A DNA stretch of 38,415 nt from a bacterium (GCA_043765655.1 JAYUIW010000083.1:1-38415), one strand, 5' to 3'; counted from the first letter of the stretch, positions 3,607 to 34,640 are shown. The notes: a model not told the origin generated them from the sequence alone. Translations and numbers: made by a program.

Positions 3607-4247
3607 CTGTCATTCTGAGCAAATGCGAAGAATCCCTTGTTGTTCAAGACACACTTCCAACCATGTCATCCTGAATTTAGTTCAGGATCTAAGAAGGTTT
3701 TTTTAAGCTGTCATTCTGAGCAAATGCGAAGAATCCCCTGTTGTTCAGACTGAACTTTCACATGAGCCCCCGTCAACTTCGTTGACACCCCCTTAACAAG
3801 GGGGAACTCATAGTAAAAACTTTAATCTTGAATAAAAAACTCCAACTGTCATCTTGAATTTATCATGCCATGGCTTCCGTCGGAACAAGTCCGACTTGTA
3901 ACTAAGACTTTTCAGGATCTAGGAAGGTCGTAATTAATGTAAGGTAATTTTTGTAACAATAAAAGATTGAATAACTTTTACCTAAATAAGTATACAAAGT
4001 CCAATAATAATTTTTTTAGATTCTGAAACAAGTTCAGAATGACAAGTTATAAAGTATATCTTTTTAAGCCGTCATCTTGAGCGAAGCGAAAGATCTGTTG
4101 GTTGTTAAACTGCAAATAGTAACTTTTACAATATTTACAAATAACAGATTCTTCGTTGCACTCAGAATGACGAAATATTGAATTTGTTTTATTAAAGATA
4201 TGATTCAACTACCCCCAAGGCTTTACTTTCACCCCTACAAAGGGGTA
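3607..4247. repeat. Hairpin-module array. R1(+)3607-3646, R2(+)3664-3693, R1(+)3708-3747, R4(+)3766-3806, R2L(+)3846-3921, R2(-)4017-4044, R1(+)4069-4106, R1(-)4145-4172, R6-like 4212-4247
   Basis: Each module matched by eye to copies elsewhere in the window. The array sits in the 1.5-kb non-coding gap between rnj and tRNA-Phe. Confidence 0.85.
3846..3921 (+). repeat. R2L copy 1: R2 hairpin whose loop carries a ~50-nt insert containing the GTCGGA-ACAAG-TCCGAC hairpin
   Basis: Aligns with 13339-13416, 17804-17879, 30509-30586 and 34442-34518. All five copies are on the + strand. Confidence 0.85.
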
Positions 4248-4586
4248 TTAATTCCTCCCCAAAAAACATTTTTTTTAATATAAATTACCAATAAATATTT
4301 TTAATATTTTGATATGAATAAGCCAAGAAGAATATTGAGACAAACCTTGATTACAAACTAATAAACCTGTACTAAAGTGTCTAATAATTATCCAACTGTA
4401 ACTTTGTTTTATCGTGATATTAATTATAAATTGTGTAATTTATTTTGTAAGGTCAATCCGATGGTGAGAACTGAACTCTTCGAATTAATCCAAAAAATAA
4501 ACTGTTATTTATATTGATTTGGTGTGGTTTGTGAACATCAAAAACTTGTTAATTAAAGTATACTTCTATTTTTATTTATTGTAAAA

Positions 4587-4835
4587 TTAACGACCGTTTT
4601 TTAGTTGATGTATACTTTCTACAGTAGGATTATAATTTTCTAAACTGTTAATTACTTGTTCTAAGATTTGATTAATTTCATAGTCAACCAAATTAATAAT
4701 TTCTAAAGTAGTGCCAGGGTTTTGAGAAATGATAATAAATTTATTAGTATCAACAATTTCTATACTAATATCTCCGTTTGTTTGAGTAAATGTATTAATA
4801 GCTATTATCTCTATAAATACCTGATGAACATTTTT
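4587..4835 (-). pseudogene. 82-codon open frame without ATG/GTG/TTG start; weak Phd/YefM-antitoxin-like pattern. Possible gene remnant
   Basis: Translated by hand: KNVHQVFIEIIAINTFTQTNGDISIEIVDTNKFIIISQNPGTTLEIINLVDYEINQILEQVINSLENYNPTVESIHQLKNGR*. Bounded by in-frame TAG (4836-4838) and TAA (4587-4589). An 82-codon open frame is notable in such AT-rich DNA. Confidence 0.25.
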
Positions 4836-4929
4836 CTACAAATAGTCCAACTAAATTTTTTATTTGTTATTTTCTTTCTTGTATTCTTAATGTTTCCATA
4901 AAATTAATTTTTGATTGTTATAATTACTT

Positions 4930-4960
4930 TTTTAGATTCTGAAACGAGTTCAGAATGACG
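4930..4960 (-). repeat. R2 hairpin module (ATTCTGAA variant)
   Basis: TAGATTCTGAAACGAGTTCAGAATGACG is the reverse complement of the R2 consensus, with both stem arms changed C>T / G>A together. Confidence 0.8.
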
Positions 4961-4987
4961 AGTAAAAGGTTTTGATTATATGTTAAA

Positions 4988-5062
4988 TGGTGCCGAGGAG
5001 AAGAATCGAACTTCCGACACGAGGCTCTTCAGGCCACTGCTCTACCACTGAGCTACCTCGGC
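4988..5062 (-). tRNA. tRNA-Phe (GAA), 75 nt, CCA encoded
   Basis: Hand-folded: GCCGAGG TA GCTC AGTGGTA GAGC A GTGGC CTGAAGA GCCTC GTGTC GGAAG TTCGATT CTTCT CCTCGGC A CCA. One U-U mismatch in the anticodon stem. Close to the canonical bacterial tRNA-Phe. Confidence 0.9.
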
Positions 5063-5078
5063 ATATTAGGTTTCTAAT

Positions 5079-5249
5079 TCCCCTTTTTCTAAAAGGGCTG
5101 TCAACAAAGTTGACGGGGTATTTTTTGAAGTTTGGCTTGAACAACAGGGGATTCTTCACATTCGTTCAGAATGACAGTTTGTTTTGGGCTTTTTAGTTGT
5201 TGTTTACTTTGAACAACAGGGGATTCTTCGCGATGCTCAGAATGACTGT
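5079..5249 (-). repeat. Hairpin-module array: R4(-)5079-5120, R1(-)5137-5177, R1(-)5209-5249
   Basis: Reverse complements of the R4 and R1 consensus. ORFs 4987..5196 and 5101..5328 are read-through artefacts of these repeats and of the tRNA. Confidence 0.85.
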
Positions 5250-5290
5250 TAAAAGGTTGGTGACGATGAAAGAAATAAAAATTAAAGCTT

Positions 5291-5833
5291 TTACTTTTTG
5301 TAAGGTCTATAGACTTTGACTGGAGCATCTTTTACTTTAACAAAACTATTTAGAAGTTCTAGGATTTCGCTTTCTAGTTCTATATAATGAAGTTTGAGAG
5401 TACTTGAGTTTTTGACACAAATCATAATGTTAAAAGCATCGATAGAATTTGTTTTGAGAAAACCTTGAACAACACTGTAGACTCTGCGGGAGATTTTTTT
5501 GCGATCTGTGGCAGGCTTGTGGAGTTTTTTGGGAATGCTAACTAGAATTCTAGGAGTTTTTTGATTAGTTTTTTGATCAAACTTATCTTCTATCTGAATT
5601 TGCGGACTTATTGGCACTTTGTCCTTGTCAAAACTTAAAGATGATTTGGTCGTTAAACTTGGTAATATTGGCTGTAAAGTTACGTTAGAATCTTGATTAA
5701 TAGTAGACGGATTCGCTTTTGTAGAGACTTTTTGGAAAGATAAATAAAAATTATTAGTATTTACTTTTTTGCCTCGACGAAGTAGATTTTGAATACTTTT
5801 TTTGGATTTTAGCTTGAATTGCTTGGCTAGCAT
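5291..5833 (-). CDS. rnpA: RNase P protein component with a ~65-aa internal insertion
   Basis: Located immediately downstream of rpmH, the classic rpmH-rnpA pair. Basic N-terminus (KLKSKKSIQNLLRRGKK) and the RnpA-like segment SIPKKLHKPATDRKKISRRV. At 180 aa it is longer than the usual ~115 aa. Confidence 0.7.
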   Translation of the reverse strand: MLAKQFKLKSKKSIQNLLRRGKKVNTNNFYLSFQKVSTKANPSTINQDSNVTLQPILPSLTTKSSLSFDKDKVPISPQIQIEDKFDQKTNQKTPRILVSIPKKLHKPATDRKKISRRVYSVVQGFLKTNSIDAFNIMICVKNSSTLKLHYIELESEILELLNSFVKVKDAPVKVYRPYKK

Positions 5834-5854
5834 TTGAGGATATGTAAATCAAAA

Positions 5855-6022
5855 CTATTTGTGAATAATAGCTTGTTTTTGACTACCGACAACCACAGCC
5901 AATCTAGTTCTCATTTTTAATCTCTTACTTTTGAGGACACTTTTCATGTACTTATTTCTTTTCATAAAGCCGAATTTGCGTGCTCTTCTTCTTTGTTGTA
6001 ATTTGGTTCCTGAATATGCCAT
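5855..6022 (-). CDS. rpmH: 50S ribosomal protein L34
   Basis: MAYSGTKLQQRRRARKFGFMKRNKYMKSVLKSKRLKMRTRLAV has the L34 arginine/lysine pattern. I chose the ATG at 6022 because the longer ORF (to 6076) would overlap tRNA-Gln. Confidence 0.75.
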   Translation of the reverse strand: MAYSGTKLQQRRRARKFGFMKRNKYMKSVLKSKRLKMRTRLAVVVGSQKQAIIHK

Positions 6023-6034
6023 AAATAAAAAATT

Positions 6035-6108
6035 TGGTTCGGGGATAGGGACTCGAACCCCAATAGACAGCACCAAAAACTATAGTCCTACCATTAGACG
6101 ATCCCCGA
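6035..6108 (-). tRNA. tRNA-Gln (UUG), 74 nt, CCA encoded
   Basis: Hand-folded: TCGGGGA TC GTCT AATGGTA GGAC T ATAGT TTTTGGT GCTGT CTAT TGGGG TTCGAGT CCCTA TCCCCGA A CCA. The U1-A72 pair is typical of bacterial tRNA-Gln. The anticodon stem has two G-U pairs. Confidence 0.8.
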
Positions 6109-6213
6109 ATAATGCGATTAATAATTGATTTTTGTTAATACTGATTCCGTGGAATACAATAAAAACTTTCTTGGTGATTGCGTGAATATTTTTGGTACTC
6201 AACACTTTAATGA

Positions 6214-6242
6214 ATTATGATACACTAAGGCTTTTTTGTCAA
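6214..6242 (-). promoter_or_regulatory. Sigma-70-like promoter for tRNA-Gln-rpmH-rnpA (TTGACA-17-CATAAT)
   Basis: On the minus strand, TTGACA (6242-6237) is followed by a 17-nt spacer and CATAAT (6219-6214), about 100 nt upstream of the tRNA 5' end. Confidence 0.5.
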
Positions 6243-6260
6243 ATAGAATCTTGGTGACTG

Positions 6261-6290
6261 TTGACACTTTGACAAGGTCTATAGTATAAT
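6261..6290 (+). promoter_or_regulatory. Consensus sigma-70-like promoter for the phosphohexomutase gene (TTGACA-18-TATAAT)
   Basis: TTGACA at 6261-6266 and TATAAT at 6285-6290, about 49 nt upstream of the ATG at 6339. Lies back-to-back with the minus-strand promoter. Confidence 0.6.
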
Positions 6291-6338
6291 GAAATATACA
6301 TAATACAAATCTTTAATTACACATTTTAACCTCATAAT

Positions 6339-7805
6339 ATGCCCTCGAATACTAATTTAACATCTCAGCAAATCCACGATTTTTTTAAGTCCTACGACAT
6401 GCGTGGCACTGTTCCAACTCTGAACGCAGAGATTTTTTATTGGACTGGTTACGGGCTTTTTGACCTTATTGTCAAGCCTCAAAACCTCCCAACAACTATT
6501 AATTTGATGCATGATTGTCGCCTTAGTTCGCCAGAATTCTACAAGGCTTTTGCTCAAGGTGTAATCGACGCTGGTGGAATGGTCAACAATCTTGGTTATG
6601 GAAGTACGGATCTACTATATGCTTCAACTCTAGTTACTCACAATACTGGTGCAATGATTACCGCGAGTCATAATCCCAAGGACGATAACGGTGTCAAAAT
6701 CCTCAAGATCGGCTCTACAATGCTCGGATTAGAAGAAGGTCTTGGAATAGTTCGTGATTTTGTTATTGCCAAATATAGTACTGATGAAAATTTGAACACT
6801 AAGCTAGAAAATCTGACTGATCCAGTAATGGACGAAGATCTCAAGACTAAGGTTAATGAGTTTTTTGTGCAAACAATTCGCGGAATTGGAGGAGCTGCAG
6901 AGGTTGATTCAATCTTGGCTTCACGGGGTCAAAAGCTCAAAATTGCCGTCGATGCAGGCAATGGAATGGGCGGTTATGTAATGGAGTTAATCAAGGATAT
7001 TTATCAAAACATTGAATTCGTACCACTATACTGGGAATTAGACGGTAATTATCCTAATCATCCTGCTGATCCACAGAACTTCGACAATCTCAAGGATCTC
7101 CAAAACATAGTTCGAACTACGGACATTGATTTTGGGTTCGCATTCGATGGAGATTCGGATAGAATTTTCTTTGTGGATGATAACGGTGATATTATTAACG
7201 GAGATTTCCTCGTAGCCTTCTTTTCTAGAGCAATTCTCAAAGCCAACCAAAAAAATCCAAGCCCTAATTACAATCATGCAATTGTGTATCTACAACCGGG
7301 ATCTCGATGTGTTATCGAAGCCATTAATGAGTGCGACGGTGTAGCAATTCCGTCAATGCAAGGACATACCAAGATCAAAGAACAAATGCAAAAATATAAA
7401 GCTCTATATGGTGGAGAATTCTCTGGACATCACTATTTTGCGCAATTTGGTTATCTGGATTCTGGAGTTATGGCGGGAGTTCTACTTATCAAAATTATTA
7501 CGGAACAAAATCAAAAAATCTCCCAAGTCTTCCAAAAACTCAAAAAAACCTACTTTATCTCGGATCTCGTGAACTTCAAAATTCCTGAGGGAATGACCTT
7601 TGAGGATATCAAAAATAAAATCAAACTAGCCTTTCAAGATTCAGTAACTAGCGAAATGGATGGAATTAGTGTGTTTTATCCCGATTGGAAATTCTCTATG
7701 AGACCAAGTAACACTGAACCCAAAGTTAGATTCATCCTAGAAACTAGAAGCACGGACAATGTTGCTGAGAAGTTAGCTCTAGTTAAAGAGGTTGTAGGGT
7801 ATTAA
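6339..7805 (+). CDS. Phosphomannomutase/phosphoglucomutase (alpha-D-phosphohexomutase family)
   Basis: Catalytic Ser loop TASHNPKDDNG, metal loop FDGDSDR, and the GEFSGH sugar-binding loop. Confidence 0.9.
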   Translation: MPSNTNLTSQQIHDFFKSYDMRGTVPTLNAEIFYWTGYGLFDLIVKPQNLPTTINLMHDCRLSSPEFYKAFAQGVIDAGGMVNNLGYGSTDLLYASTLVTHNTGAMITASHNPKDDNGVKILKIGSTMLGLEEGLGIVRDFVIAKYSTDENLNTKLENLTDPVMDEDLKTKVNEFFVQTIRGIGGAAEVDSILASRGQKLKIAVDAGNGMGGYVMELIKDIYQNIEFVPLYWELDGNYPNHPADPQNFDNLKDLQNIVRTTDIDFGFAFDGDSDRIFFVDDNGDIINGDFLVAFFSRAILKANQKNPSPNYNHAIVYLQPGSRCVIEAINECDGVAIPSMQGHTKIKEQMQKYKALYGGEFSGHHYFAQFGYLDSGVMAGVLLIKIITEQNQKISQVFQKLKKTYFISDLVNFKIPEGMTFEDIKNKIKLAFQDSVTSEMDGISVFYPDWKFSMRPSNTEPKVRFILETRSTDNVAEKLALVKEVVGY

Positions 7806-7815
7806 GGGTTAAAAT

Positions 7816-8150
7816 CCCCTCTTATAAGGGGGTACAATTTCAAAAAATACTGTCACCCTATTTTTTACACTGTCATCTTGAGCATAGCGAAAGATCCCCT
7901 GTTGTTCAAACCAAAACTCCCACTGTCATTCTGAGCAAAGCGAAGAATCCCCTAGCTTTTGAGTTTATACAACCCCCAAGCTTCGCTTGACCCCTTCGGA
8001 TACATGCGTCGCCGTATCAAGTACGGCTGTACCAGGGTCTTCAAAAGGGGTATGCTCCCAAAAAACTGTCATCTTGAGCAAGTGAGAAGTGGGTTCGGGT
8101 TTCCCGAACAAAGCATTCGCCACGACATGCGAAATACTCCCTGTTGTTCA
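7816..8150 (+). repeat. Hairpin-module array. R7/R3-like 7816-7832, R1 7870-7908, R1 7923-7953, R4/R6-like 7971-7994, R5 7991-8050, R1 with a ~48-nt loop insert 8066-8150
   Basis: All modules are in + orientation, downstream of the phosphohexomutase gene. ORFs 7959..8165 and 8041..8241 are artefacts of this array. Confidence 0.85.
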
Positions 8151-8200
8151 AACCAAGTCTATTAATCAAAAATATACACTTGGTTAATGAAAGTAAAAAG

Positions 8201-9085
8201 CTATAAATTAGTATTATAAGCTCTAAAATTAGACATATCAAATTTTGGTTTGTTGCCTGAGTTTTTGAGTAAATTATAACTTCCTATAATTGTAGCTATG
8301 AGTTGGAAAGCTTGACTTGCCTTTCGTTTTCTAATCTTACTTTTTTTGTATTCTTCAGTTTTTTTAAAATACTCCCACTCAAAAGAACGCCTCTCTACAC
8401 TACGTCCATATACCTCATGTCTTTCTGCGGTTTGTATTTTGAGTATATTTACAAAGTCTCCACTAAGTAAAAGCGTCAAAAGCATTCTAAGATAAACTTT
8501 TTTTTCGGTTAAAATTCGTTCAAGTTCCATTCCAAACATTTTGGCAACAGTTCTATCTAGCTCAAGCTTGGATTGCGTTACAGTTCCGTTCTCTTTCATC
8601 TGCGGAGTTATGTCGAATCCCGTTGGAATAATTAGCAATCTATCAATGACTGAACGGTCGAAAGATTCATCTAACCTTAAATAATCGATAAACATTTTTT
8701 CTAATTCTCTAGCGTTTTGAAAGGCTTCTGTATTGTAAGGGAATTGAGAAGTTCCGCAGTCAGCAGCAGGTCCGTTAACAAGTAGAATTATTTTTCTATC
8801 AGGGTATTGAATTAGCTCTTTTTTGATTTCGGAATAATGCTTTGAAAGATAGCAAAGATTAAACCAACTATTTTGCATACTTAATTCTTCCGTATCATCC
8901 GGTCTGTTGATAATATTTTGAGGATAAGAGTAATTATTAACTCCGCCGTAGCAATGTAAAGTTTGCAAAGTTGTGTTGGGATATTTGAACTCTTCAACCA
9001 ATCTAAGCAAATTACTTACTTCGTTAATTCGGTTTTTTCTAAGATCTGGAGCTTGTTCGTTCCATAGGACTTTATTAACATTCAT
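8201..9085 (-). CDS. Hypothetical protein (294 aa)
   Basis: Long ORF with ordinary composition. No motif that I can name with confidence. Confidence 0.5.
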   Translation of the reverse strand: MNVNKVLWNEQAPDLRKNRINEVSNLLRLVEEFKYPNTTLQTLHCYGGVNNYSYPQNIINRPDDTEELSMQNSWFNLCYLSKHYSEIKKELIQYPDRKIILLVNGPAADCGTSQFPYNTEAFQNARELEKMFIDYLRLDESFDRSVIDRLLIIPTGFDITPQMKENGTVTQSKLELDRTVAKMFGMELERILTEKKVYLRMLLTLLLSGDFVNILKIQTAERHEVYGRSVERRSFEWEYFKKTEEYKKSKIRKRKASQAFQLIATIIGSYNLLKNSGNKPKFDMSNFRAYNTNL

Positions 9086-9136
9086 AATCTTGATTATAAC
9101 TTAATTTAGCACCTTTGTCAAAAATCTAAAAACCAC

Positions 9137-9952
9137 CTATAAACTCAAATTTTGAACCACTAATTTTTTGAGACAATTAGCATTATTGAGTTCGTGACTC
9201 TTCAGAACATTTTGGATTAATTTTGCGACCGAAGTATCTAATTTTTCTTTATAAATAAAAGTCAGATTAGTTTCTAACAACCACAACCAAAAATCCAGTT
9301 CATAGCGTTCGACATCGCTGAGTTTATCAATCGTCAAGAAGTTTTTTTGGAGTAATATTCCAATCGCTTCTTTGGGATCTGGGAGAATTTTTTTAACTTT
9401 GGTGAGTAGATTTTGGTCGATGTTGGCAATTGAGAATTCACTAGTTAGGTTCTGAGTTACACACCGCGAGAGAATGGTTGGAAGAACTTCGCTACGACTT
9501 TGGGCAGTGAGAATAATAAATAAATTGGTTGGTGGTTCCTCGATTAGTTTGAGCATTCCTTCCTGAAGCGTTGTTGAATATTGGCTAAGATCTCCTAGAA
9601 TTAGCAAAGTTGGAGTTGAGTAGTTTTGGTAAACATCGCTGGCAACGAATTGGCGGAATTGCTCCTTGGCGGAGTCTGTAGAATCTTTGATATTTTCAAA
9701 AAGGATAACTTTTTTGTCCATTTTGGCGTTTTCTAGAATTTCCAAGTTTGGTTTAAGCTTAGTTAATTCATTTATATCTAGCCATTTTGAATTTGAGCTA
9801 GAACTATTATCAAAACATTGTCCAAAAAACTGCACTAAAATTGAATTAAAATTATTAGTATCAAGTTTTGTTTGGGTGATTATTAAGTGAGAGTGGATCA
9901 TAGGGTTGGGATTGGGTGGTGGTGTTTTTAATTTGAAAAAGGCTAATTTCAA
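9137..9952 (-). CDS. holB: DNA polymerase III delta-prime subunit-like clamp-loader protein
   Basis: LKLIEEPPTNLFIILTAQSRSEVLPTILSRC matches the delta-prime LK.LEEPP....L.......LL.TI.SRC box. The annotated start is TTG, directly abutting an R2 repeat. The ATG at 9901 (MIHSHL..) is a more likely start. Confidence 0.7.
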   Translation of the reverse strand: MKLAFFKLKTPPPNPNPMIHSHLIITQTKLDTNNFNSILVQFFGQCFDNSSSSNSKWLDINELTKLKPNLEILENAKMDKKVILFENIKDSTDSAKEQFRQFVASDVYQNYSTPTLLILGDLSQYSTTLQEGMLKLIEEPPTNLFIILTAQSRSEVLPTILSRCVTQNLTSEFSIANIDQNLLTKVKKILPDPKEAIGILLQKNFLTIDKLSDVERYELDFWLWLLETNLTFIYKEKLDTSVAKLIQNVLKSHELNNANCLKKLVVQNLSL

Positions 9953-10259
9953 CTGTCATCCTAAACTTGTTTCAGGATCTAAAATAGTAATTATTAGAAT
10001 TTATGGTCAAAAATTTACAGGTTTCGTTAAAAAATAAATTTAAGATTAAGATTTGTTATCAGGCTTACAATCTCTTAAAACAACCTTTTTAGATCCTGAA
10101 ACAAGTTCAGGATGACATAGTGGGAGTTTCAGCTTGAACAACAGGGGATTCTTCGGTTCCCTCAGAATGACAGTTTGTTTTAGGATTGTACCCCCTAGCC
10201 CCCTGACAGGGGGAATTATTTGGAATATAGGGGATCTTTCGCTTCGCTCAAGATGACAG
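9953..10259. repeat. Hairpin-module array. R2(+)9953-9985, R2(-)10090-10117, R1(-)10133-10173, R7 10198-10213, R1(-)10229-10259
   Basis: Matches to the R1/R2/R7 consensus. ORF 10046..10318 is an artefact of this array. Confidence 0.85.
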
Positions 10260-10314
10260 CGTGATGGAATTTTTAAGATGAAAGTATAAAAAATATAAAT
10301 TAAGCTTTGATGCT

Positions 10315-11942: not shown

Positions 11943-12056
11943 GTATACCAATATCACTTTCAACTTTTACAAAAAACTTCAAAAAGCAAATAAATGTTTT
12001 TACTTCAAAGTATTTTTGAGTAAAAGTCAGTCAAAGTTCATATGGGTTTGGGTATA
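11943..12056 (+). repeat. R8 copy 1: ~115-nt long imperfect hairpin element, 83 nt upstream of guaA
   Basis: Aligns along its full length with 25298-25413 and 28953-29070. The arms TATACCAATATCACTTTCAACTTTTACAAAA and TTTTTGAGTAAAAGTCAGTCAAAGTTCATATGGGTTTGGGTATA pair. Confidence 0.85.
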
Positions 12057-13152: not shown

Positions 13153-13645
13153 ACCCTCGGCACTTCGTGCCACTCCCTACATAGGGAGACCAAAACCACA
13201 GCTGTCATCTTGAGCGAAGCGAAAGATCCCCTGCTGTTCAGAATTTACTACCATTAGAACCCCTGTCAACTTCGTTGACATCCCCTTAATAAGGGGAAAC
13301 TTATAGCAAAAACTTTGATTTTGAGATAAAAACTTCCACTGTCATCCTGAACTTGTCATGTTAGAACCTATCGTCGGAACAAGTTCGACTTGCAACCAGT
13401 TACTTTTCAGGATCTAAAAAGATTGTTTTATGCTGTCATTCTGAACGAATGTGAAGAATCCCCTGTTGTTAGCTATAAAGCATGAACTATATTCACCCTG
13501 TCAGAGGGTTAGGCAGTACAAAAAAACATTTAAAATTGAATCAAACCAACAGATCTTTCGCTATGCTCAAGATGACGAAATAATAACTTTTAACATAAAA
13601 CAAAATCCCCGAGCCATTAGGCTCATCCCTTTATCAAGAGGTAAC
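13153..13645. repeat. Hairpin-module array. R4-variant 13153-13189, R1(+)13202-13240, R4(+)13260-13300, R2L(+)13339-13416, R1(+)13433-13470, R7 13496-13508, R1(-)13544-13578, R3(+)13602-13645
   Basis: This array fills the whole guaA-prs gap. ORFs 13451..13723 and 13623..13874 are artefacts of it. Confidence 0.85.
13339..13416 (+). repeat. R2L copy 2
   Basis: CTGTCATCCTGAACTTGTCATGTTAGAACCTATCGTCGGAACAAGTTCGACTTGCAACCAGTTACTTTTCAGGATCTA. Confidence 0.85.
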
Positions 13646-14681: not shown

Positions 14682-16241
14682 TTATCCCCATCGTCCTCGG
14701 AATTGGAGGCTTTCGGCGAGGTGCTTGAGCTGGATATTCTCGCTTCCTTCTAGATCGGCGATGGTTCTAGATAGCTTGATAAGTCTCATGTATGCACGGG
14801 CTGAGAGTTTGAATTTGTCGACGGCTTTGGATAATAGGTCTTGTGTTGGTTTATCTAATTCGCAGTACTTTTGGATCATTGAGAGTGACATTTCGGAATT
14901 AGTGAAGATTTTAGTTCCAGCGAATCGAGTGGTCTGTATATCTCTGGCTTTTTGGATTCTGATGCGAATACTAGCGGATTTTTCTCCATATTCCTTAGAT
15001 TCTAGTTCGTCCTTGGTTGGTCTGTTGACATCGACTTGAAGATCAATTCTATCCAAAATTGGTCCTGAGAATTTGGCTTGGTACCTTGCAATTGCGCTGC
15101 GATTTTGGGGTTTGTTCATTCCATCAGGATCATCAGCGTCGAAGCCCGCGGGAGTCGGATTAGCAGCGGCAAGTAAATAAAAACTAGCAGGATATTCAAT
15201 AGAACCAGTGGCTCTAGAGATTGTAACATAACCGTCTTCCAAAGGTTGGCGAAGAACTTCAATGCTTTCACGGGAGAACTCTGGGAACTCGTCTAGGAAC
15301 AATACTCCACGATGTGCGAGTGAGATTTCTCCAGGGCGGAGTTTGGAACTACCTCCAACTAGAGCAATGTGCGAACAGGAATGATGCGGAGATCTAAAAG
15401 GACGCTTGGACATTATTTTACCACTATCGAGAAGTCCAGCCACTGAGTATATCTGGGTGACTTCCAGAATTTCTTCCTCTGTCATTCTAGGTAAAATCGT
15501 AGTGTAACTTTTGGCAAGTAGGGTTTTGCCACTGCCGGGTTGTCCGATGAACAGAATGTTGTGTCCGCCACTTGCTCCAATTTCTAAGGCCCGCTTTGCC
15601 ATGGTTTGCCCTTTGACAAAGGCCATATCGTTGATTTCTAATTCTGGATTTTCGCTATTAACATTCCCAGTTCTCAGATCAAGGTCTTGAATCTCTTGAA
15701 AATTAATCGGAATTACAGGCTCTAACTTTTTGGCATTATTCAAAAAATTAACAAGATCGCCTAGACTTTCAATCGCAAAAATATTAATTCCACCGACAAG
15801 TTTAGCTTCGGCTTCGTTAGCTTTGGGCACAAAAACATTTTCAAAACTATTTTTTCTAGCCCAGAGACAAGTACTGAGAACGCCTGTAACTCCACGGAGT
15901 TTGCCATCCAGGGATAATTCTCCAAGGAAAATTGACTTCGGACTAAGTTCTTTGGTAATCACGCCGATTAACCTGAGAATTCCAATTGCAATAGGTAGAT
16001 CTAGACTGGAGCCACTTTTGATAACGCCAGCTGGAGCAAGGTTAACGGTAATTTTGCCAAGCGGGAACTCGTAGCCAGATTGTTTGATTGCTGAGCGGAC
16101 ACGCTCTTTGGATTCTTGGACGGCTTTGTCAGGAAGACCTACGATTACGATCATCGGCAAGCTTGGGCTAAGATCGATTTCGGTCTCGATTAATTGTGTG
16201 TCCAGTCCGATATTGGTTGCTGTGAATACTTTGGTAATCAT
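14682..16241 (-). CDS. comM: Mg-chelatase-like AAA+ protein YifB/ComM
   Basis: Lon-like N-domain, Walker A GQPGSGKT, Walker B VLFLDEF, and the ChlI-type C-terminal helical region. Confidence 0.9.
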   Translation of the reverse strand: MITKVFTATNIGLDTQLIETEIDLSPSLPMIVIVGLPDKAVQESKERVRSAIKQSGYEFPLGKITVNLAPAGVIKSGSSLDLPIAIGILRLIGVITKELSPKSIFLGELSLDGKLRGVTGVLSTCLWARKNSFENVFVPKANEAEAKLVGGINIFAIESLGDLVNFLNNAKKLEPVIPINFQEIQDLDLRTGNVNSENPELEINDMAFVKGQTMAKRALEIGASGGHNILFIGQPGSGKTLLAKSYTTILPRMTEEEILEVTQIYSVAGLLDSGKIMSKRPFRSPHHSCSHIALVGGSSKLRPGEISLAHRGVLFLDEFPEFSRESIEVLRQPLEDGYVTISRATGSIEYPASFYLLAAANPTPAGFDADDPDGMNKPQNRSAIARYQAKFSGPILDRIDLQVDVNRPTKDELESKEYGEKSASIRIRIQKARDIQTTRFAGTKIFTNSEMSLSMIQKYCELDKPTQDLLSKAVDKFKLSARAYMRLIKLSRTIADLEGSENIQLKHLAESLQFRGRWG

Positions 16242-16332: not shown

Positions 16333-16527
16333 CTCTTTTTGTAAAAGGGGTGTCAACGAAGTTGACGGGGTTGTGTTTGCAGTGAATTTTGAACAACAGG
16401 GGATTCTTCCCGATGCTCAGAATGACAACCTTAAAACAACTTTTTTAGATCCTGAAATAAATTCAGGATGACAGTGGTAGTTTTTATTCAAGAGCTGGGG
16501 TATTCTTCGTTACACTCAAGATGACAG
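16333..16527 (-). repeat. Hairpin-module array: R4(-)16333-16370, R1(-)16389-16428, R2(-)16446-16474, R1(-)16489-16527
   Basis: Reverse complements of the consensus modules. The R2 flank AAAACAAC(C)TTTTT is shared with the copies at 10078 and 17971. Confidence 0.85.
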
Positions 16528-17803: not shown

Positions 17804-17879
17804 TGTCATCCTCAACTTGTCGTACCGAGGCTATCGTCGGAACAAGTCCGACTTGTAACCAGTTACTTTTCAGGATCTA
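17804..17879 (+). repeat. R2L copy 3
   Basis: TGTCATCCTCAACTTGTCGTACCGAGGCTATCGTCGGAACAAGTCCGACTTGTAACCAGTTACTTTTCAGGATCTA. Confidence 0.85.
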
Positions 17880-17983: not shown

Positions 17984-18199
17984 TAGATCCTGAAACGAGT
18001 TCAGGATGACAGTTGTAGTTTTTGTTTTGAAATGAAAGTTTTTGTTACGAAATACCCTTTTTGAAGGGGTGAAGGCAAAGCCTTCGAGATTGTTGTAGTT
18101 TTGACTTGAACAACAGGGGATTCTTCACATTTGCTCAGAATGACGATTGGAGTTTTTGCTTAAGAGCTGGGGGATCTTTCGCTTTGCTCAAGATGACAG
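17984..18199 (-). repeat. Hairpin-module array: R2(-)17984-18012, R6(-)18054-18088, R1(-)18105-18146, R1(-)18160-18199
   Basis: Matches to consensus modules. The array lies between uppP and the recJ N-fragment. Confidence 0.85.
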
Positions 18200-19815: not shown

Positions 19816-19886
19816 ATAGTTAAAGAAATTAGGGTTTGTTGGGTTTTAAAAAATTTCTACACTTACTATTTTAACAGTCTAAAATA

Positions 19887-19929
19887 AAATCCCCGAGCCA
19901 TTCGGCTCACCCCTTTATCAAGGGGTAAC
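19887..19929 (+). repeat. R3 double-hairpin module
   Basis: AAAATCCCCGAGCCATTCGGCTCACCCCTTTATCAAGGGGTAAC, the cleanest R3 copy. Confidence 0.85.
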
Positions 19930-25297: not shown

Positions 25298-25413
25298 GTA
25301 TACCAATATCACTTTCAACTTTTACAAAATACCTTTCAAAAAGCAAATAAATTACTTTACTTCAAAGTATTTTTGAGTAAAAGTCAGTCAAAGTTAATAT
25401 GGGTTTTGGTATA
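25298..25413 (+). repeat. R8 copy 2: same orientation as copies 1 and 3, but both flanking genes are on the minus strand
   Basis: Nearly identical to copy 1 except for the central ~15 nt. Confidence 0.85.
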
Positions 25414-28417: not shown

Positions 28418-28425
28418 AATACTAA

Positions 28426-28659: not shown

Positions 28660-28952
28660 ATGTGTATTTGTTTGTGTTTATAATTTTTGTTTGTGTGTTT
28701 GTTTTAACACTTACTAATAAGTATACATCATATTTTTTCTTTTTGCAAATAGTGTGTGTAAAATAGTTATTTTTTGGCTTATTGTTCAATATTTTAGCTG
28801 ATATTTTGGTTGAGCTCGACTGTCATTAATTTCTAATTTACCTTAGTTTTTTGGTTGATCACCAAATATGGTTCAAATTAATATAGTTCAAACATTAAGA
28901 ATTGACAATTATTATAAGATAGGGCATACTAAAATAGATAAGTCACAACAAA

Positions 28953-29070
28953 GTACACCGATATCACTTTCAACTTTTACAAAATATTCTTTAAAAAAAT
29001 GACTAAATACCCTTATTTAAAAATATTTTTGAGTCAAAGTCAGTCAAAGTTCATATGGGTTTTTGGTGCA
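28953..29070 (+). repeat. R8 copy 3: 77 nt upstream of glyA
   Basis: Shares ATATCACTTTCAACTTTTACAAAA and TATTTTTGAGT.AAAGTCAGTCAAAGTTCATATGGGTTT with copies 1 and 2. The centre and outer stem differ but still pair. Confidence 0.85.
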
Positions 29071-29146
29071 ACAAATTCTATTTTGACAAAAATTTCACTT
29101 TTTTGAATCTTAACTCGTCATTCTTAATTTTAATATTCCCAATTTT

Positions 29147-30454
29147 ATGTCTCACTCAACACTCAACGCCGACACCAACTTTATCCAACATCTTACAGCT
29201 CACGAATACGATCGCCAACGTGATTCTATCTCATTAATCGCCTCCGAGAACACACCATCGCCTAAGGTTATTGACTGTCTTGGTGGTATTAATCCCGAGG
29301 GAATTCGCTCGCTGTGGTCCAACAAGTATGGCGAAGGTTACCCTGGCAAACGCTACTACGCAGGCAATCAATATACGGATGAACTAGAATCCTTTGTCCA
29401 AAAAAAAGCCTTAGAAGTCTTCGGGCCAGTGGCAGTCGAGGAATACGCTGTTAATCTTCAGATGAATGCAGGCTCAATGGCCAATATGATGGTTTATCTC
29501 TCGGTTCTAGAATACGGCGATATGGTTGTCTCGCTGAACGTTGCCAACGGTGGACACATCTCTCACCTGCATACAACTAGTGCCTGGAACAAGTTCTTCA
29601 AGTACGCTAACTATGATCTAGTAGAAACTGAGCCGAATACCTTCGAAATCGACTACCAAGACTATTGCCAAAAAATCTTAGACAACAAGCCAAAACTGGT
29701 AATTATCGGTTGTTCGTCTTATCCTCGGGAAATCAAAAATTACAAAGAGATGATTGAGTTCGCCCACGCCAATGGAGCTCTGGTTCTATGTGATATTGCT
29801 CATATTAATGGTCTAGTTGCGGCTGGACTACACGCTACGCCTTTTTTGAGTGGAGTTAGTGGAGCTGACTTTGTATCGATGACTACTCACAAGACTTTCC
29901 GTGGCCCGCGTGGTGCGATGCTGTTTTTCAAAAAAGAATTCGAAACTGTAGTCAACAAAACAGTCTTCCCTGGAACTTCGGGTGGTCCGCACTTTAACAA
30001 AATTGCTGGTATCGGACAAGCTTGTCTGGAGATCCTTGGCGAAGATGTGTATCCTGATGGACGCGACTTCAAGACTTATTCCGCTGATGTTCTACGCCAA
30101 ACCAAGTTACTAGAAACTACACTTGTCAACGCTGGTCTCAAGATTATCTCTCCGACAGAGACTCACTTAATGTTATGTGTGCTTCCTGATGAATCTGACT
30201 CTCTAGTTACCCAAAAAAGTCTTGATGAAATCGACATTGTCTGTAACCGCAACTCTATTCCTTTTGAGAAAAAATCAATGTGGAAACCTTCGGGCTTGAG
30301 ATTAGGAACCGCCGCTGTAACTAGTCGTGGAATTAGCGATGAACAAATCGTCGAACTAGGTAACATTATTGCAGATTGTGTCAAAGGTGGCGACAAAGTC
30401 GAACTATCAACTAGAGTCAAACAAATTGTAGACAATATTAACTGGTGGTATTAA
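29147..30454 (+). CDS. glyA: Serine hydroxymethyltransferase
   Basis: SLIASEN, the PLP-lysine motif TTHKTFRGPRG, and overall SHMT collinearity. Confidence 0.95.
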   Translation: MSHSTLNADTNFIQHLTAHEYDRQRDSISLIASENTPSPKVIDCLGGINPEGIRSLWSNKYGEGYPGKRYYAGNQYTDELESFVQKKALEVFGPVAVEEYAVNLQMNAGSMANMMVYLSVLEYGDMVVSLNVANGGHISHLHTTSAWNKFFKYANYDLVETEPNTFEIDYQDYCQKILDNKPKLVIIGCSSYPREIKNYKEMIEFAHANGALVLCDIAHINGLVAAGLHATPFLSGVSGADFVSMTTHKTFRGPRGAMLFFKKEFETVVNKTVFPGTSGGPHFNKIAGIGQACLEILGEDVYPDGRDFKTYSADVLRQTKLLETTLVNAGLKIISPTETHLMLCVLPDESDSLVTQKSLDEIDIVCNRNSIPFEKKSMWKPSGLRLGTAAVTSRGISDEQIVELGNIIADCVKGGDKVELSTRVKQIVDNINWWY

Positions 30455-30473
30455 TTATTTTATTTTTTAACAC

Positions 30474-30946
30474 AAAATCCCCGAGTCACTAGGCTCACCT
30501 CCATCATACTGTCATTCTGAACTCGTCGTGCTAAAACCTATCGTCGGAACAAGTCCGACTTGCAACCAGTTACTTTTCAGGATCTAAAAAACTCCAAATT
30601 AGTTGTCATTCTGAGCGTAGCAAAGAATCCCCTGTTGTACACAATACACTCCAACCATGTCATCCTGAACTTGTTTCAGGATCTAAAAAAGTTATTAATA
30701 AGTTTCAGGATCTAAATTTGAGGTTTCGTAAATGAGGATATTAAGTTAGTTATACCCGTTTTATTATTTATCTTCCAAAATAAAATCCCCGAGCCATTCG
30801 GCTCACCCCTTTGGACACGTGCGTCGCCGTATCAAGTACGGCTGTACCAGTATCTTCAAAAAGGGGTAACAACCCCGAAGGCTTTGCCTTCACCTCCCCC
30901 CTGCACATGCATCGCCGTATCAAGTAAGGCTTTACCAGATCAAAAA
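30474..30946 (+). repeat. Hairpin-module array. R3(partial)30474-30505, R2L 30509-30586, R1 30603-30639, R2 30658-30690, half-R2 30702-30716, R3 with R5 insert 30782-30870, R6 30873-30897, R5-variant 30896-30946
   Basis: All modules are in + orientation. The array fills the glyA to pseudouridine-synthase gap. Confidence 0.85.
30509..30586 (+). repeat. R2L copy 4
   Basis: CTGTCATTCTGAACTCGTCGTGCTAAAACCTATCGTCGGAACAAGTCCGACTTGCAACCAGTTACTTTTCAGGATCTA. Confidence 0.85.
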
Positions 30947-31031
30947 TCTCACTATTTTTACAGCTTAACTTTGTTTTACAACCCCATAATTACCATCCCA
31001 ACAAAAAACCCTTTTTCCTAACAATCACACC

Positions 31032-32102
31032 ATGAAAACACGCCTTCACAAATACCTCGCAAACTATCTCCAATCAATTGGCGAGCTGGGTTATACCGTC
31101 CCCGAAATCAAACGCAACATCGAAAGCTGTGGAGTAATTCTCAACGGAACATTAACAAAACGCCAGTTGGAATGGGCTTTTGACGGGTCTAGTATCGAAC
31201 TATTGAATTGGCCCAAGCGAGTTATGGGCGACACTTCTTTGATCCAGATAATCCACGAAGACGAATTCTGTATTGTTATTAATAAGCCTTTTGGGCTGGT
31301 GGTCGAGCCTGGAGCTGGGCACGTTCTAGATAATGTTACCACTTGGTTGATGGATAATTACCCCAATCAGAACTTTGAGAAGATCTACAAAGCCAGCGAT
31401 CTTACCGATTTGTACAAGAAATATGGCATCGAGACTAGAGATATGAAATCTTCTGACGATAATTCTTCCACTAGGAGTTTTGCACTACCCAAAACTGGAA
31501 TGGTGCACCGAATCGACAAGAACACTCAGGGAATTCTTTTGATAGCCAAAAGCTTAGAATACTATGTTTTTTTTCAGAAGCAGTTCCGAGAGCACACCAT
31601 CCTCAAAAAATACTTAGCAATAGCGCAGGGTGTAGTCGACCACAAATACGACGTTCATAACTACCAAAGTCGTGATTACAGCAATCCGATTCGCAATAGG
31701 CTTTTTTGGACGCACAAAGACGCTATGAATTACAGTGTAGATTCTCGTGACGCTCATAGTTATATTACGCCTGTTTTGTCATGTGCAGAACTAAACCAAA
31801 CCTTAGTGGAAGTGCAGATTATGACTGGTAGAATGCACCAAATTCGCCTACAATGTGAGGCTCTAGGTTTTCCTTTAGTTGGTGATAATGTCTACAAATC
31901 TAACTCCACGATTCTGTATGATTTTGACCTTAACCCGAAGAACTCTCGAACTTTAACAAACCCAAAAATTCAAGGTTTAACTAAAGAAAGCTTCTTTGAT
32001 CTCAAACAAAACTACTTCGGCGATCACAAGTATTGCCTAATTAGTAATCAGATGAGCTTTATGTTACCTAACGCCAAAAAGCTTGAGTTGAAGATTAATT
32101 AG
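31032..32102 (+). CDS. RluA-family pseudouridine synthase (RluD-like) with insertions
   Basis: S4-like N-terminus, the catalytic motif HRIDKNTQGILLIAK (HRLD..TSG), and the C-terminal ..GRMHQIR.. motif. Confidence 0.85.
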   Translation: MKTRLHKYLANYLQSIGELGYTVPEIKRNIESCGVILNGTLTKRQLEWAFDGSSIELLNWPKRVMGDTSLIQIIHEDEFCIVINKPFGLVVEPGAGHVLDNVTTWLMDNYPNQNFEKIYKASDLTDLYKKYGIETRDMKSSDDNSSTRSFALPKTGMVHRIDKNTQGILLIAKSLEYYVFFQKQFREHTILKKYLAIAQGVVDHKYDVHNYQSRDYSNPIRNRLFWTHKDAMNYSVDSRDAHSYITPVLSCAELNQTLVEVQIMTGRMHQIRLQCEALGFPLVGDNVYKSNSTILYDFDLNPKNSRTLTNPKIQGLTKESFFDLKQNYFGDHKYCLISNQMSFMLPNAKKLELKIN

Positions 32103-32243
32103 ACTAAAAAATCCAAATTGGACCAAAGTAAGAACTTTGACGAGCTGATGAAAATCTGACATAATTGTAATATCAAAATATGGTAAACAAAGATAATTCT
32201 TACCAGTTTTTATATCTATTAATTAATGCTCAAACATTCGTAA

Positions 32244-34340
32244 ATGTCCAAATTTAACAACTTTTTTAAAAAAACAATTGTCATCTATTCCATAATTATT
32301 TTTATTTGTGGATTTTTCACTTTCTTTCAAGGTTATGACAAGCCAGAAGGTTTGTTTTGGGACGAAAACTATCACATTGCAAGTGCTCAACGTTATCTTC
32401 AAGGTAAGTTTTTTATGGAGCCGCATCCGCCATTTGGCAAGCTCTTAATCGCTCTTGGTGAAAAAATTGTTCACCCTAATCAAGGTCTCGATGTCTCCAA
32501 AATGGTCGGAGCAGGTGAAGGTGATGGTCTAGGATATATTCAGAGCCTAGAAGTAAAATGGCTCGATCCAGCGCGAACTGACGAAGCCAAGTTCAACTTT
32601 AGCGGTGTTAGATTGTTCCCTGTACTCGCTGCCTGGGCTTGTTGTCTATTAATACTGTGGATTGTATATTCCGCCACCAAAAATCCTCACATTGCTTTTC
32701 TAATCACCTTTGCATATACCTTCGATAACTCTATAATTACACATTCTCGTGGAGCGATGATCGATTCAATTCAACTATTCTTTATACTTTGTTCCACTTT
32801 AACATTTGTCAAAATCTGGACGAACCAAATCAAATTCAACCTCAAAAATCTCATAATTTTGTGTAGTTTTATATCACTGGCGTTCGCTGTTAAGATGAAT
32901 AGTTTGATAGTTTTATTATACTTAGTATTCCTAATGGTTCGCGAATTGTGGATGCATAAGTATCGAATGAATGTTCTGAAGTCGAGTGTTATCGGAGTTG
33001 CTACCTTCCTTGGAGTTTTTGGTGTCGATATTTTTAGGATAATTACTACTCCAAAAGGCGATCTGTTGATTCCGATGAACGATATAACTAGCTGGGTAGT
33101 TCGAATTGTTTTTGGCTTGATTGTATTTTTTATTACCCAAAAATTCCTGTTTCCAACTTTTGATACTAAGGAAGAATTAAATTCTGAAATGCTCAAATCC
33201 ATTGAAACTTTCGGGCTCAACTGGGCTGGCAAATTCGGAGTTTTTATTCTAATCTTTTTCTTAATTGTTGGCGGAGCGTATCAAGTTCACTTTGGACTAA
33301 CTGACACAATGATTGCTGGGAATGATTTTATTGCCAAAATTGAAATCAAAGAACTAACCACCAAAACAGTATCTGGTGGTGATGGCAAAACTGTAACAAC
33401 GTGGACAGAAGAACCAAACCTCGAAAAAGCCAAAGCTATTCAGGATCGTTACTATGCCATTCTTGATAATAATCAGACTTGGAATCCTAGTAACTTTGTA
33501 TTCCAGATGCAAGAACAACTCCGATTTGTTAATAAGTTCCAAAAAGGCGTTCCATCTCTAGATCTCAAAAAAGGTGATGACGAAGCTGGATCTTATCCAA
33601 TCTGGTGGATGGTTGGAGCTAGAACTGTGGCTAATTATCGTAGTTCATGGTCGCCTATAGAAGGTAAAGCTGGCTCTAATAATTATAAGGACTTTGTTAC
33701 CAACTATCTAACTCCGGCACCTAATATTGTAGTTTGGTGGAGTGGGCTTGCTGGAATTATACTGGCTTTATCACTGTTTATTTCCAAGTATTTTTGGAAA
33801 AATAAAAATCTAGAAAATGTTTTAGAGAACTCTTTGAACAGTAATAAAATTAATGCTAATCAACAAGAATTGGGATCAAAATCACCACAAACTTACTTCT
33901 TTGAACTTAAGGATTTGTCACCAGTTAATATTAGATTATCCTTGATTGCCTGCTTTACTTCCTGCTATATATTCTATATGATTACAATGTCGTCCATTGA
34001 CAGAGTTTTGTATATTTATCATTATTATTTTGCACTGGTGATTGCGTTGATAACTTTCGGCTTAGTAATCGATTATTATTTAATGTTAAATAAAAAACCA
34101 GTAGAAACCAAAATAAAAAATCAAGATTTGGAAGAACTTTCTTCTTCTTTAGCATCAAATAATTCCAAATTCTCAAAAACTAAAATTGCTTATCTAATTA
34201 GTTTAGTATTAATCTTCGGAAATTTCGTTTTCATTGCACCTTTTACTTATGCTCTTCCAATAACTGTAGACCAATTCAATCAGCGTAATGTTCTCAAGTA
34301 CATTGGACTTCGGGTAAATAAAAATATGGAAAGCAAGTAA
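32244..34340 (+). CDS. GT-C fold membrane glycosyltransferase, GT39 / protein-O-mannosyltransferase (PMT)-like
   Basis: First-loop motif WDENYHIASAQRYLQGKFFMEPHPPFGKLLIALG resembles PMT (..DE.H...A..Y......D.HPP.GK.L). Many TM helices and a large soluble loop. Confidence 0.7.
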   Translation: MSKFNNFFKKTIVIYSIIIFICGFFTFFQGYDKPEGLFWDENYHIASAQRYLQGKFFMEPHPPFGKLLIALGEKIVHPNQGLDVSKMVGAGEGDGLGYIQSLEVKWLDPARTDEAKFNFSGVRLFPVLAAWACCLLILWIVYSATKNPHIAFLITFAYTFDNSIITHSRGAMIDSIQLFFILCSTLTFVKIWTNQIKFNLKNLIILCSFISLAFAVKMNSLIVLLYLVFLMVRELWMHKYRMNVLKSSVIGVATFLGVFGVDIFRIITTPKGDLLIPMNDITSWVVRIVFGLIVFFITQKFLFPTFDTKEELNSEMLKSIETFGLNWAGKFGVFILIFFLIVGGAYQVHFGLTDTMIAGNDFIAKIEIKELTTKTVSGGDGKTVTTWTEEPNLEKAKAIQDRYYAILDNNQTWNPSNFVFQMQEQLRFVNKFQKGVPSLDLKKGDDEAGSYPIWWMVGARTVANYRSSWSPIEGKAGSNNYKDFVTNYLTPAPNIVVWWSGLAGIILALSLFISKYFWKNKNLENVLENSLNSNKINANQQELGSKSPQTYFFELKDLSPVNIRLSLIACFTSCYIFYMITMSSIDRVLYIYHYYFALVIALITFGLVIDYYLMLNKKPVETKIKNQDLEELSSSLASNNSKFSKTKIAYLISLVLIFGNFVFIAPFTYALPITVDQFNQRNVLKYIGLRVNKNMESK

Positions 34341-34347
34341 ATAAATT

Positions 34348-34640
34348 CTCCCTGTCAGGGGGTACAAAAAAAGTTGTTTTTACACTGTCATTCTGAACGA
34401 ATGTGAAGAATCCCCTGTTGTTTAATGCAAAGTGCGAATTGTGTCATCCTAAATTTGTCGTGCTAGAACCTCTCGTCGGAACAAGTCCGACTTGCAACCA
34501 ATTACTTTTCAGGATCTAAAAAAGTTGTTTCTAAAGTTTTAGCTATATATTAAAATATACTTCTAAATAACCATAACACTAAAAACAACTATTTTTTAAC
34601 AAACAACCAACAGATCTTTCGTTACACTCAAGATGACGAT
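34348..34640. repeat. Hairpin-module array: R7 34348-34365, R1(+)34385-34422, R2L(+)34442-34518, R1(-)34606-34640
   Basis: Matches to the consensus modules, in the GT39-gatC gap. Confidence 0.85.
34442..34518 (+). repeat. R2L copy 5
   Basis: TGTCATCCTAAATTTGTCGTGCTAGAACCTCTCGTCGGAACAAGTCCGACTTGCAACCAATTACTTTTCAGGATCTA. Confidence 0.85.

Follow-up and report, generated by a model that had tools for sequence, protein, structure and literature searches.

R1, a tandem-GA hairpin repeat of a Patescibacteria-like genome, as a probable member of the tagged REP hairpins read by Ssn nucleases

Introduction

Repetitive extragenic palindromic (REP) sequences carrying an unpaired CGTC tag, often TGTC (or CCTC), have been described in Proteobacteria, Chlorobi, Bacteroidetes, Spirochaetes, and Thermotogae (Di Nocera et al. 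2013, BMC Genomics 14:522, PMC3733652). Here we compare with these and other tagged hairpins a repeat, R1, that is found in a 38,415-nucleotide stretch of bacterial DNA (GCA_043765655.1, JAYUIW010000083.1:1-38415), which is referred to below as the window. The stem of a CGTC REP starts with complementary A-T at positions 1 and 2, has 8–9 paired positions and a loop of 4–5 nt, and is followed by a short unpaired 3' tail with the consensus CCA. The units occur mostly as head-to-head dimers, often of unlike units, and head-to-tail arrangements are negligible. They lie downstream of genes, many are thought to be transcribed, and some copies are genic and in frame (Rickettsia RPE-4/-6, Neisseria dRS3); no transposase, including the tyrosine type, was found adjacent to them (PMC3733652). 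The filter of that survey discarded palindromes with more than one mismatch, and therefore a hairpin type with a tandem G.A step would have been lost from it.

An enzyme for such hairpins was described by Chenal et al. 2025 (Nat Commun 16:2388, PMC11893778). Hairpins like the Neisseria Transformation Sequence (NTS/dRS3), named Ssn-related motifs (SRM), flank small GIY-YIG ssn genes and are present as hundreds of oriented copies clustered in intergenic regions. SsnA binds the hairpin as single-stranded DNA (ssDNA) only, on one strand, and not as RNA or double-stranded DNA, and it cuts a few bases upstream. According to mutagenesis, cutting depends on the three nucleotides before the palindrome and binding on the C that follows it, whereas the loop sequence is ignored; in Neisseria, SsnA lowers transformation by NTS-bearing DNA (PMC11893778). 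A second kind of enzyme is encoded by the class 3 HuH-Y1 genes, which are flanked by GA-NN-loop-NN-GA hairpins of high copy number; Solibacter, for example, has about 600 of them (Quentin et al. 2018, BMC Genomics 19:475, PMC6006769). The latter shows that the GA-NN-loop-NN-GA design is used by ssDNA enzymes.

Based on the evidence presented here, R1 together with two companion repeats, R2 and R3, probably constitutes a local family of CGTC/TGTC-tagged REP hairpins, of the class of the SRM (Neisseria NTS/dRS3, Rickettsia RPE-4/-6), that is read by an Ssn nuclease in ssDNA. The tandem G.A stem of R1 is apparently an uncatalogued variant of this known system.

Structure and covariation of the R1 hairpin

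R1 came to attention in an earlier note, made from the sequence alone, as 21 copies of a hairpin maintained by compensatory changes. The generic core GTCATYYTGA-N7-8-GAARRATC has 18 exact matches in the window and none in 100 shuffles; three deviant copies, one with a mismatched 3' arm, one with GA..AA in place of GA..GA, and one with a loop split by an insertion, complete the 21. The count in the earlier note was thus right, and its coordinates were off by 1–3 nt. The stem has nine positions, two of which are G.A (not standard pairs), and the loop has 3–4 nt. In 20 of 20 aligned copies the stem opens with A-T (pairs 7/28) and then T-A (8/27), and in all copies the outer helix directly abuts the GA step. 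The 5' tag is TGTC in 15 copies, CGTC in five, and AGTC in one. The positions on which cutting and binding by SsnA depend are both present, as GTC is constant in 20/20 aligned copies and a C directly follows the stem in 19/20. The tails open with CCC, CTG, or CTC and define three subfamilies, CCCCTGTTGTTCA, CTGTTGGTTGTT, and CCCCAGCTCTTGA. The first of these has 13 matches in the window, compared with 0.68 expected, and every copy with the second belongs to an inverted pair.

The structure was tested on an alignment (A2) of 20 R1 copies against 500 shuffles and slid controls. In the named structure of seven stem pairs, 98.6% of cells are paired versus 88.0 +/- 1.4 in shuffles (0/500), whereas the slid controls are just 16–55% paired. 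Two-sided changes occur in four of the seven pairs and amount to 21 compensatory cells versus 6.7 in shuffles (0/500). The outer arms alternate between TCT/AGA and CTT/AAG, and the inner step is GC/GC, AC/GT, GT/AC, or GG/CC, with one G.T wobble and one mismatch (copy 16390-16427), so that the variants previously listed, including the two imperfect ones, were recovered. The GA..GA step is nearly invariant, as had been claimed: the first GA is present in all aligned copies and the second in 19/20. The earlier note had named as a possible refutation that the paired variants stem from a few clonally amplified subfamilies with no excess of compensatory over single changes. Compensatory cells exceed those of the shuffles, as given above, but the variants form clonal subfamilies, so that the independent compensatory events in the window are few (about 4–5).

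Occurrence and constraint beyond the window

A search for the motif in other genomes, which had been proposed at the outset, found the R1 core in at least 120 viral contigs, nearly all as GTCAT-YCT-GA-GC-GNA-GC-GA-AGR-ATC, and on plasmids of cyanobacteria, Bacteroidota, and Acidobacteria. The tandem-GA hairpin is not lineage-specific; several phyla and many phage contigs carry it. Among cultured GenBank phages the R1-type element is almost absent.

In an unbiased sample, obtained by fixing only the 5' half and the loop in the search and leaving the 3' arm free, this arm was complementary in 113/139 hits, with eight different Watson-Crick arm variants. In the wider family, about a third of the copies are inverted doublets of 70–140 nt with TG...CA ends, and their halves often carry different arm variants, each of them self-complementary. 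What is preserved is therefore the small local hairpin. Taken together, the complementary arms and the unlike doublet halves uphold the proposal that a folded single strand is under constraint and that shared ancestry alone does not account for the pattern. The GA step has a context of its own: a purine follows the first GA and a pyrimidine precedes the second in 105/106 family-like hits, and the loop is closed by G..A in 88 of the 106. In the context 5'-Y-GA-R-3' tandem G.A pairs tend to adopt the sheared form, and a GNA triloop closed by C-G makes a DNA mini-hairpin unusually stable.

The doublets might instead be read as miniature inverted-repeat transposable elements moved by a DDE transposase, with TGTCAT...ATGACA as terminal inverted repeats and the inner hairpin incidental. 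The many inverted doublets with TG...CA ends agree with this, and their ends presumably resemble the IS50 end CTGTCTCTTGATCAGATCT. A terminal repeat acting in double-stranded DNA, on the other hand, needs no halves that differ and are nevertheless self-complementary; most window copies are singlets, and no target-site duplications are present at the window doublets. The 145 element-adjacent phage open reading frames are ordinary structural genes with no transposase family enriched, a comparison that is uninformative in this direction in that non-autonomous copies far outnumber enzyme genes. We regard a DDE-moved element as highly improbable.

The expansion in the window appears to be specific to its lineage. 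Relatives whose serine hydroxymethyltransferase (SHMT) is 79–80% identical have no such elements in 18–21 kb, and more distant relatives have a few. The tail CCCCTGTTGTTCA, searched as GAARRATCCCCTGTTGTTCA, gave nothing beyond chance matches in genome contigs (4) and metagenome contigs (11); a close relative of this tail subfamily is thus absent from both collections searched.

In related phages, different hairpin elements occur at the same intergenic spot, and a comparison of filled and empty sites among them gave no clean empty site. For example, the spacer at 4190-4300 of contig L111 and the same spacer in L045, L186, L193, L057, L033, and L047 (phages about 80% identical) hold varying elements, either TGTC-tagged or unrelated palindromes, just upstream of a ribosome-binding site. 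This spacer looks like a hot spot for hairpin insertions. Tagged hairpins also enter genes: in two Planktothrix plasmids (L209 at ~14940-15120 and ~16650; L127 at ~2738 and ~4394) doublets or partial heads lie inside the BREX PglX methyltransferase gene. The PglX insertions are in frame and add peptides such as AQNDR and VILSETKDL with the reading frame intact.

Association with ssn genes

The association of tagged hairpins with GIY-YIG genes was found here independently, ahead of the comparison with Chenal et al. It was seen in an 808-kb contig of a relative (L215; SHMT 75% identical to that of the window), in which a 104-aa single-domain GIY-YIG gene of the cd10448 type (2763-3077) has inverted R2-type hairpins on both sides and ends in DPESSSG*, a C-terminus encoded by the reverse complement of the hairpin. 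In 47 of the 120 closest homologues of this protein, the reverse complement of a TGTC hairpin codes for the C-terminal tail, and 42 of these stop at the TGA within the ATGAC tag of the downstream hairpin. The hairpin-encoded tail comprises the last seven residues, which covary like the stem: P..G, A..A, and S..E (DPE..SG, DAE..SA, DSE..SE). In viral contigs 13 homologue loci were found, and 12/12 full-length ones have CGTC/TGTC hairpins beside the gene, most of them on both sides. The homologue family comprises 20,457 clusters at E <= 1e-3. Residues Y6, Y17, and E65 are invariant in the homologues and correspond to the catalytic Y6, Y17, and E64 of SsnA; a sequence search of the PDB found no relative of the nuclease.

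The tandem-GA type itself is associated with ssn genes in other organisms. Representative proteins end in DPSLRSG*, DFSLRSK*, or PLRSE*, or contain HSERSEES. Tandem-GA TGTC hairpins flank two distinct ssn genes, on three contigs, in inverted orientation. In L229 the gene (P0456) has GTCATTCTGAGAGCAGCGAAGAATC 15 nt upstream and its 3' end is the reverse complement of GTCACCCTGAGCGAAGCGAAGGGTC. In L230 and L231 the same gene (P0401) has identical flanks: it is preceded by GTCATCCCGAGCGCAGCGAGGGATC, and its 3' end is GTCATTTCGAGCGCAGCGAGAAATC in reverse complement.

It is this association that bears on whether R1 is instead a REP of the RAYT or Y1-HUH kind, mobilised by a tyrosine transposase that is encoded elsewhere and reads a hairpin with G.A mismatches. 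The class 3 HuH-Y1 hairpins do share the order stem-GA-NN-GNNA-NN-GA-stem, for example CCGAG CCGC GA CC GTAA GG GA GCGG in Legionella (PMC6006769), and the doublets are REPIN-like (PMC3116915). However, the tandem-GA TGTC hairpins flank GIY-YIG genes and not Y1 genes, the tag is YGTC and not GTAG/GTGG or CnGA, and no tyrosine transposase was found beside CGTC REPs (PMC3733652). No protein with the HUH-Y1 motif is encoded in the window or in 1.9 Mb of element-bearing loci; the earlier remark that the window lacks a RAYT/IS200-like gene is therefore correct, and it looks for what appears to be the wrong kind of enzyme. A Y1-HUH origin of R1 is accordingly very unlikely.

Arrangement and orientation of the repeats in the window

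All tagged hairpins of the window are confined to nine long spacers; the intergenic share of the window is about 20%. Three inverted R1 pairs are present, and most copies are singlets or stand in head-to-tail arrays with R2 and R3, in which each chained unit opens with TGTCAT. The copies are as follows.

R1, 3608-3646, plus strand: TGTC tag, ATTCT-GA-GC-AAAT-GC-GA-AGAAT, C, tail CCCTTGTTGTTCA
R1, 3709-3747, plus strand: tail CCCCTGTTGTTCA
R1b, inverted doublet, 4070-4107 (plus strand) and 4135-4172 (minus strand): tails CTGTTGGTTGTT and CTGTTATTTGT; a REPIN-like long hairpin with fold z of -3.1 to -6.9
R1, 5138-5176, minus strand: inner step AC/GT, loop GAAT
R1, 5210-5247, minus strand: tag AGTC
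R1, 7871-7908, plus strand: arms ATCTT/AAGAT
R1, 7924-7961, plus strand: tail CCCCTAGCTTTTG
R1, 8067-8150, plus strand: about 50 nt inserted in the loop, with a hairpin of their own (GGGTTCGGG-TTT-CCCGAAC)
R1, 10135-10172, minus strand: inner step GG/CC
R1, 10221-10258, minus strand: loop region GCGAAGC
R1, 13203-13240, plus strand
Inverted pair, R1a 13434-13472 (plus strand) and R1b 13540-13577 (minus strand)
R1, 16390-16427, minus strand: one inner mismatch (GC..GG)
R1, 16488-16526, minus strand: mismatched 3' arm, the uncompensated ATCTT / AGAAT; tail CCCCAGCTCTTGA
R1, 18107-18145, minus strand: G.T wobble in the inner step, tag CGTC
R1, 18160-18198, minus strand: tail CCCCCAGCTCTTA
R1, 30604-30641, plus strand: second GA changed to AA
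Inverted pair, R1a 34386-34424 (plus strand) and R1b 34601-34638 (minus strand): encloses the R3 copy 34442-34516
R2, eight copies: 3664-3689 (plus), 4019-4044 (minus), 4935-4960 (minus), 9954-9979 (plus), 10092-10117 (minus), 16448-16473 (minus), 17986-18011 (minus), 30658-30683 (plus)
R3, five copies: 13340-13414, 3847-3919, 17804-17877, 30510-30584, 34442-34516 (all plus)

R2 and R3 have the head TGTCATYCTGA in common, as in R1. R2 is a TGTC-tagged hairpin with a wholly Watson-Crick stem, in which GA pairs with TC, and its fold z is -3.7 to -3.8. In R3 the outer stem is of the R2 type and the loop is enlarged by an insert of about 50 nt, and one R1 copy (8067-8150) is interrupted in a similar way. 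The R3 inserts, for example 13370-13399, contain a small hairpin of their own, CGTCGGAACAAGTCCGAC, which again starts with CGTC. Judged by its sequence, the R3 insert looks like a tagged hairpin nested inside another tagged hairpin.

As first noticed, 16 of the 21 R1 copies are in the sense orientation to the flanking genes (binomial p = 0.027), and for all tagged hairpins of the window (R1–R3) the figure is 25/34 (p = 0.009). The sense bias is real but modest. In the earlier note it was seen as fitting a role in transcripts, as a stabiliser of the 3' untranslated region, a processing site, or an insulator. In the corresponding rival reading R1 would act mainly in RNA, where the hairpin with its tandem G.A step would shield transcripts from exonucleases, mark a processing site, or bind an RNA-binding protein. 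Several findings are in keeping with such a role. The elements lie downstream of genes; in the phage contigs they occupy short spacers at the ends of genes, and 12 of the intergenic sites are convergent compared with 2 that are divergent; departures from pairing on the tagged strand are G.T wobbles and not A.C; and many REPs are transcribed in the view of Di Nocera et al. (PMC3733652). Against these stands the fact that single copies between co-directional genes of the phage contigs have no orientation bias (11 sense versus 9 antisense), that these hairpins are found around ssn genes in either orientation, and that the RNA form is no ligand of SsnA (PMC11893778). As RNA, R1 is also predicted to be no more stable than shuffles (z of -1.7, +0.5, and -0.6), no T run follows R1 in the window, and no Rfam family fits it; on the window Rfam matched two tRNAs only, even at E <= 10 on short stretches. 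The transcript role is thus not supported, and it is unlikely that R1 is mainly an RNA element; a secondary effect on RNA is a residual reading.

Proposed mechanism

In the Ssn reading of R1, the YGTC-AT... strand would fold into a short hairpin once it becomes single-stranded. A small single-domain Ssn GIY-YIG nuclease may then recognise the hairpin together with the unpaired 5' GTC tag and the 3' C, and nick a few bases upstream. The present data show the structural conservation of R1, its place among the tagged REPs, and the association of tandem-GA hairpins with ssn genes of other organisms; the restriction of binding and cleavage to ssDNA and the effect on natural transformation come from the published work on Neisseria. 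The organism presumably encodes the cognate nuclease elsewhere in its genome. The two adjacent G.A pairs (5'-Y-GA-R-3' on both strands) and the loop usually closed by G..A may be a signature that has co-evolved with one Ssn clade, in which the GA step would serve as a recognition element. It is proposed that copies persist or multiply if they retain both the fold and the GA step, which would give rise to the compensatory pattern. The ssn genes flanked by inverted copies (SRM-ssn-SRM) are similar to insertion sequences, and such units most likely gave rise to the scattered singlets, inverted doublets, and head-to-tail arrays as their non-autonomous derivatives.

Several observations weigh against this reading. 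The R1 hairpin is not a strong fold under standard DNA or RNA energy models (z from -1.7 to +0.5). In copies with the CCCCTGTTGTTCA tail, for example 3707-3749, the energy models favour another pairing over the R1 hairpin, because the tail, TTGTTCA(GA), can pair with (TC)TGA(G/A)CAA in the 5' half of the same copy; this alternative has no covariation support. The 16/21 sense bias is not predicted by a strand-specific ssDNA nuclease site alone, and the predominance of singlets and head-to-tail arrays in the window is unlike the head-to-head dimers of CGTC REPs. A tblastn search found no ssn gene in the 38-kb window. Finally, the published SRM motif, HGTCWYN(0-2)YYVSBRHN(0-5)WNVSBRGN(0-2)RNCYNB, has no match on either strand of the window because the GA step breaks its V-S positions; membership in the class therefore rests on the shared architecture and the gene association.

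A bolder extension of the Ssn reading is possible, if rather doubtful. The tandem-GA TGTC hairpin could be a major uncatalogued class of Ssn targets that perhaps predominates outside Proteobacteria and in their phages, with its own nuclease clade reading a sheared G.A stem. In that case the hairpin-ssn-hairpin unit, in which the stop codon comes from the tag, would be truly mobile, its non-autonomous copies would have invaded this small genome at about one per kb, and the sense bias would point to transcription-linked insertion or selection.

Host and other features of the window

The window makes up nearly all of a 38.6-kb metagenome contig (ENA ERZ27314329 k141_397406). It has a G+C content of about 36% and carries housekeeping genes, namely RNase J, phosphoglucomutase, holB, a GMP-synthase-like gene, PrsA, ComM, BacA, SHMT, RluD, and PMT. 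The named relatives of its SHMT (56–57% identity) are from Patescibacteria and Saccharimonadia, which suggests that the host is Patescibacteria-like.

The 1.5-kb stretch 3456-4987, between RNase J and tRNA-Phe, has no gene and consists mostly of tagged hairpins and other repeats, which is unusual for a small compact genome. Apart from R1–R3, three further repeat families are seen:

1318-1383, 13567-13632, 19851-19916, 30439-30504, and 30747-30812: family with AAAATCCCCGAGCCATTCGGCTCACCCC, whose opposite strand has the form of a G+C-rich hairpin with a T run behind it; probably an intrinsic terminator module that these sites have in common
11943-12056, 25298-25413, and 28953-29069: module of about 115 nt in three copies (GTATACCAATATCACTTTCAACTTTTACAAAA...GTCAGTCAAAGTTCATATGGGTTT), upstream of genes; may be a shared promoter or leader region
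7982-8050, 30797-30865, and 30905-30938: family with the core CGTCGCCGTATCAAGTACGGCTGTACCAG, within the same repeat-rich spacers

A contig from a sister sample (L141, 1379-2607) is identical to the window up to 16463, inside an R2 copy, and then continues into a different locus (SufE). This divergence reflects either an assembly break or recombination at the repeat.

Significance

R1, until now an orphan repeat, gains a likely partner and mechanism, and the tandem G.A stem type found in several phyla and many phage contigs is one that the published SRM search motif misses. Ssn clades each have their own ssDNA specificity and are in development as tools; a clade reading the tandem GA would add a new specificity. 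Reliance on DNA uptake is generally ascribed to Patescibacteria, and densely spaced targets of a nuclease trimming single strands as they enter could influence recombination or DNA scavenging in these organisms. For annotation, the hairpins break assemblies and yield spurious extensions of open reading frames (tails DPETSSG and DPSLRSG; strings such as RFAQND). Literature searches with strings of the peptide artefacts and DNA words returned nothing relevant.

Comparison with known systems

Among RNA motifs, the kink-turn and box C/D resemble R1 in having tandem sheared G.A beside a Watson-Crick helix and CUGA on one strand. These two and a hammerhead core were rejected on anatomy: R1 lacks the 3-nt bulge that defines a kink-turn, its boxes are not oriented as required, and it contains no CUGANGA. 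The evidence moreover points to DNA.

Among DNA hairpins, those of the class 3 HuH-Y1 genes follow the same plan as R1, in the order outer stem, GA, two base pairs, G..A-closed loop, two base pairs, GA, and outer stem. They differ from R1 in their 5' foot CnGA(G), in their G+C-rich stems, and in their enzyme, which is a tyrosine HUH and not a GIY-YIG protein. GTAG REPs and REPINs with RAYT (Nunvar 2010; Bertels and Rainey 2011) share with R1 the extragenic hairpin with an unpaired 5' tetranucleotide, the inverted doublets, and the compensatory stems, and resemble the ssn system in having a single-copy enzyme gene flanked by repeats. Their tag, however, is GTAG/GTGG compared with YGTC, and their enzyme is a Y1 HUH protein.

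R1 is a tagged REP in the sense of Di Nocera et al., with the same tag, A-T/T-A start of the stem, C-led 3' tail, dimers of unlike units, location at gene 3' ends, in-frame copies, and lack of a transposase close by. It departs from the CGTC REPs in the tandem G.A inside the stem and the loop of 3–4 nt, whereas theirs are a fully paired stem and a loop of 4–5 nt.

Compared with the SRM, R1 has a stem broken by the conserved tandem G.A step and a loop of 3–4 nt. The host here is Patescibacteria-like and many copies are in phage contigs, neither of which is mentioned in the text of Chenal et al. (PMC11893778). In other respects R1 is built like an SRM, in that an unpaired 5' (H)GTC tag, A-T, a short hairpin with a free loop, and a C follow each other in this order, and inverted copies of the hairpin surround ssn genes.

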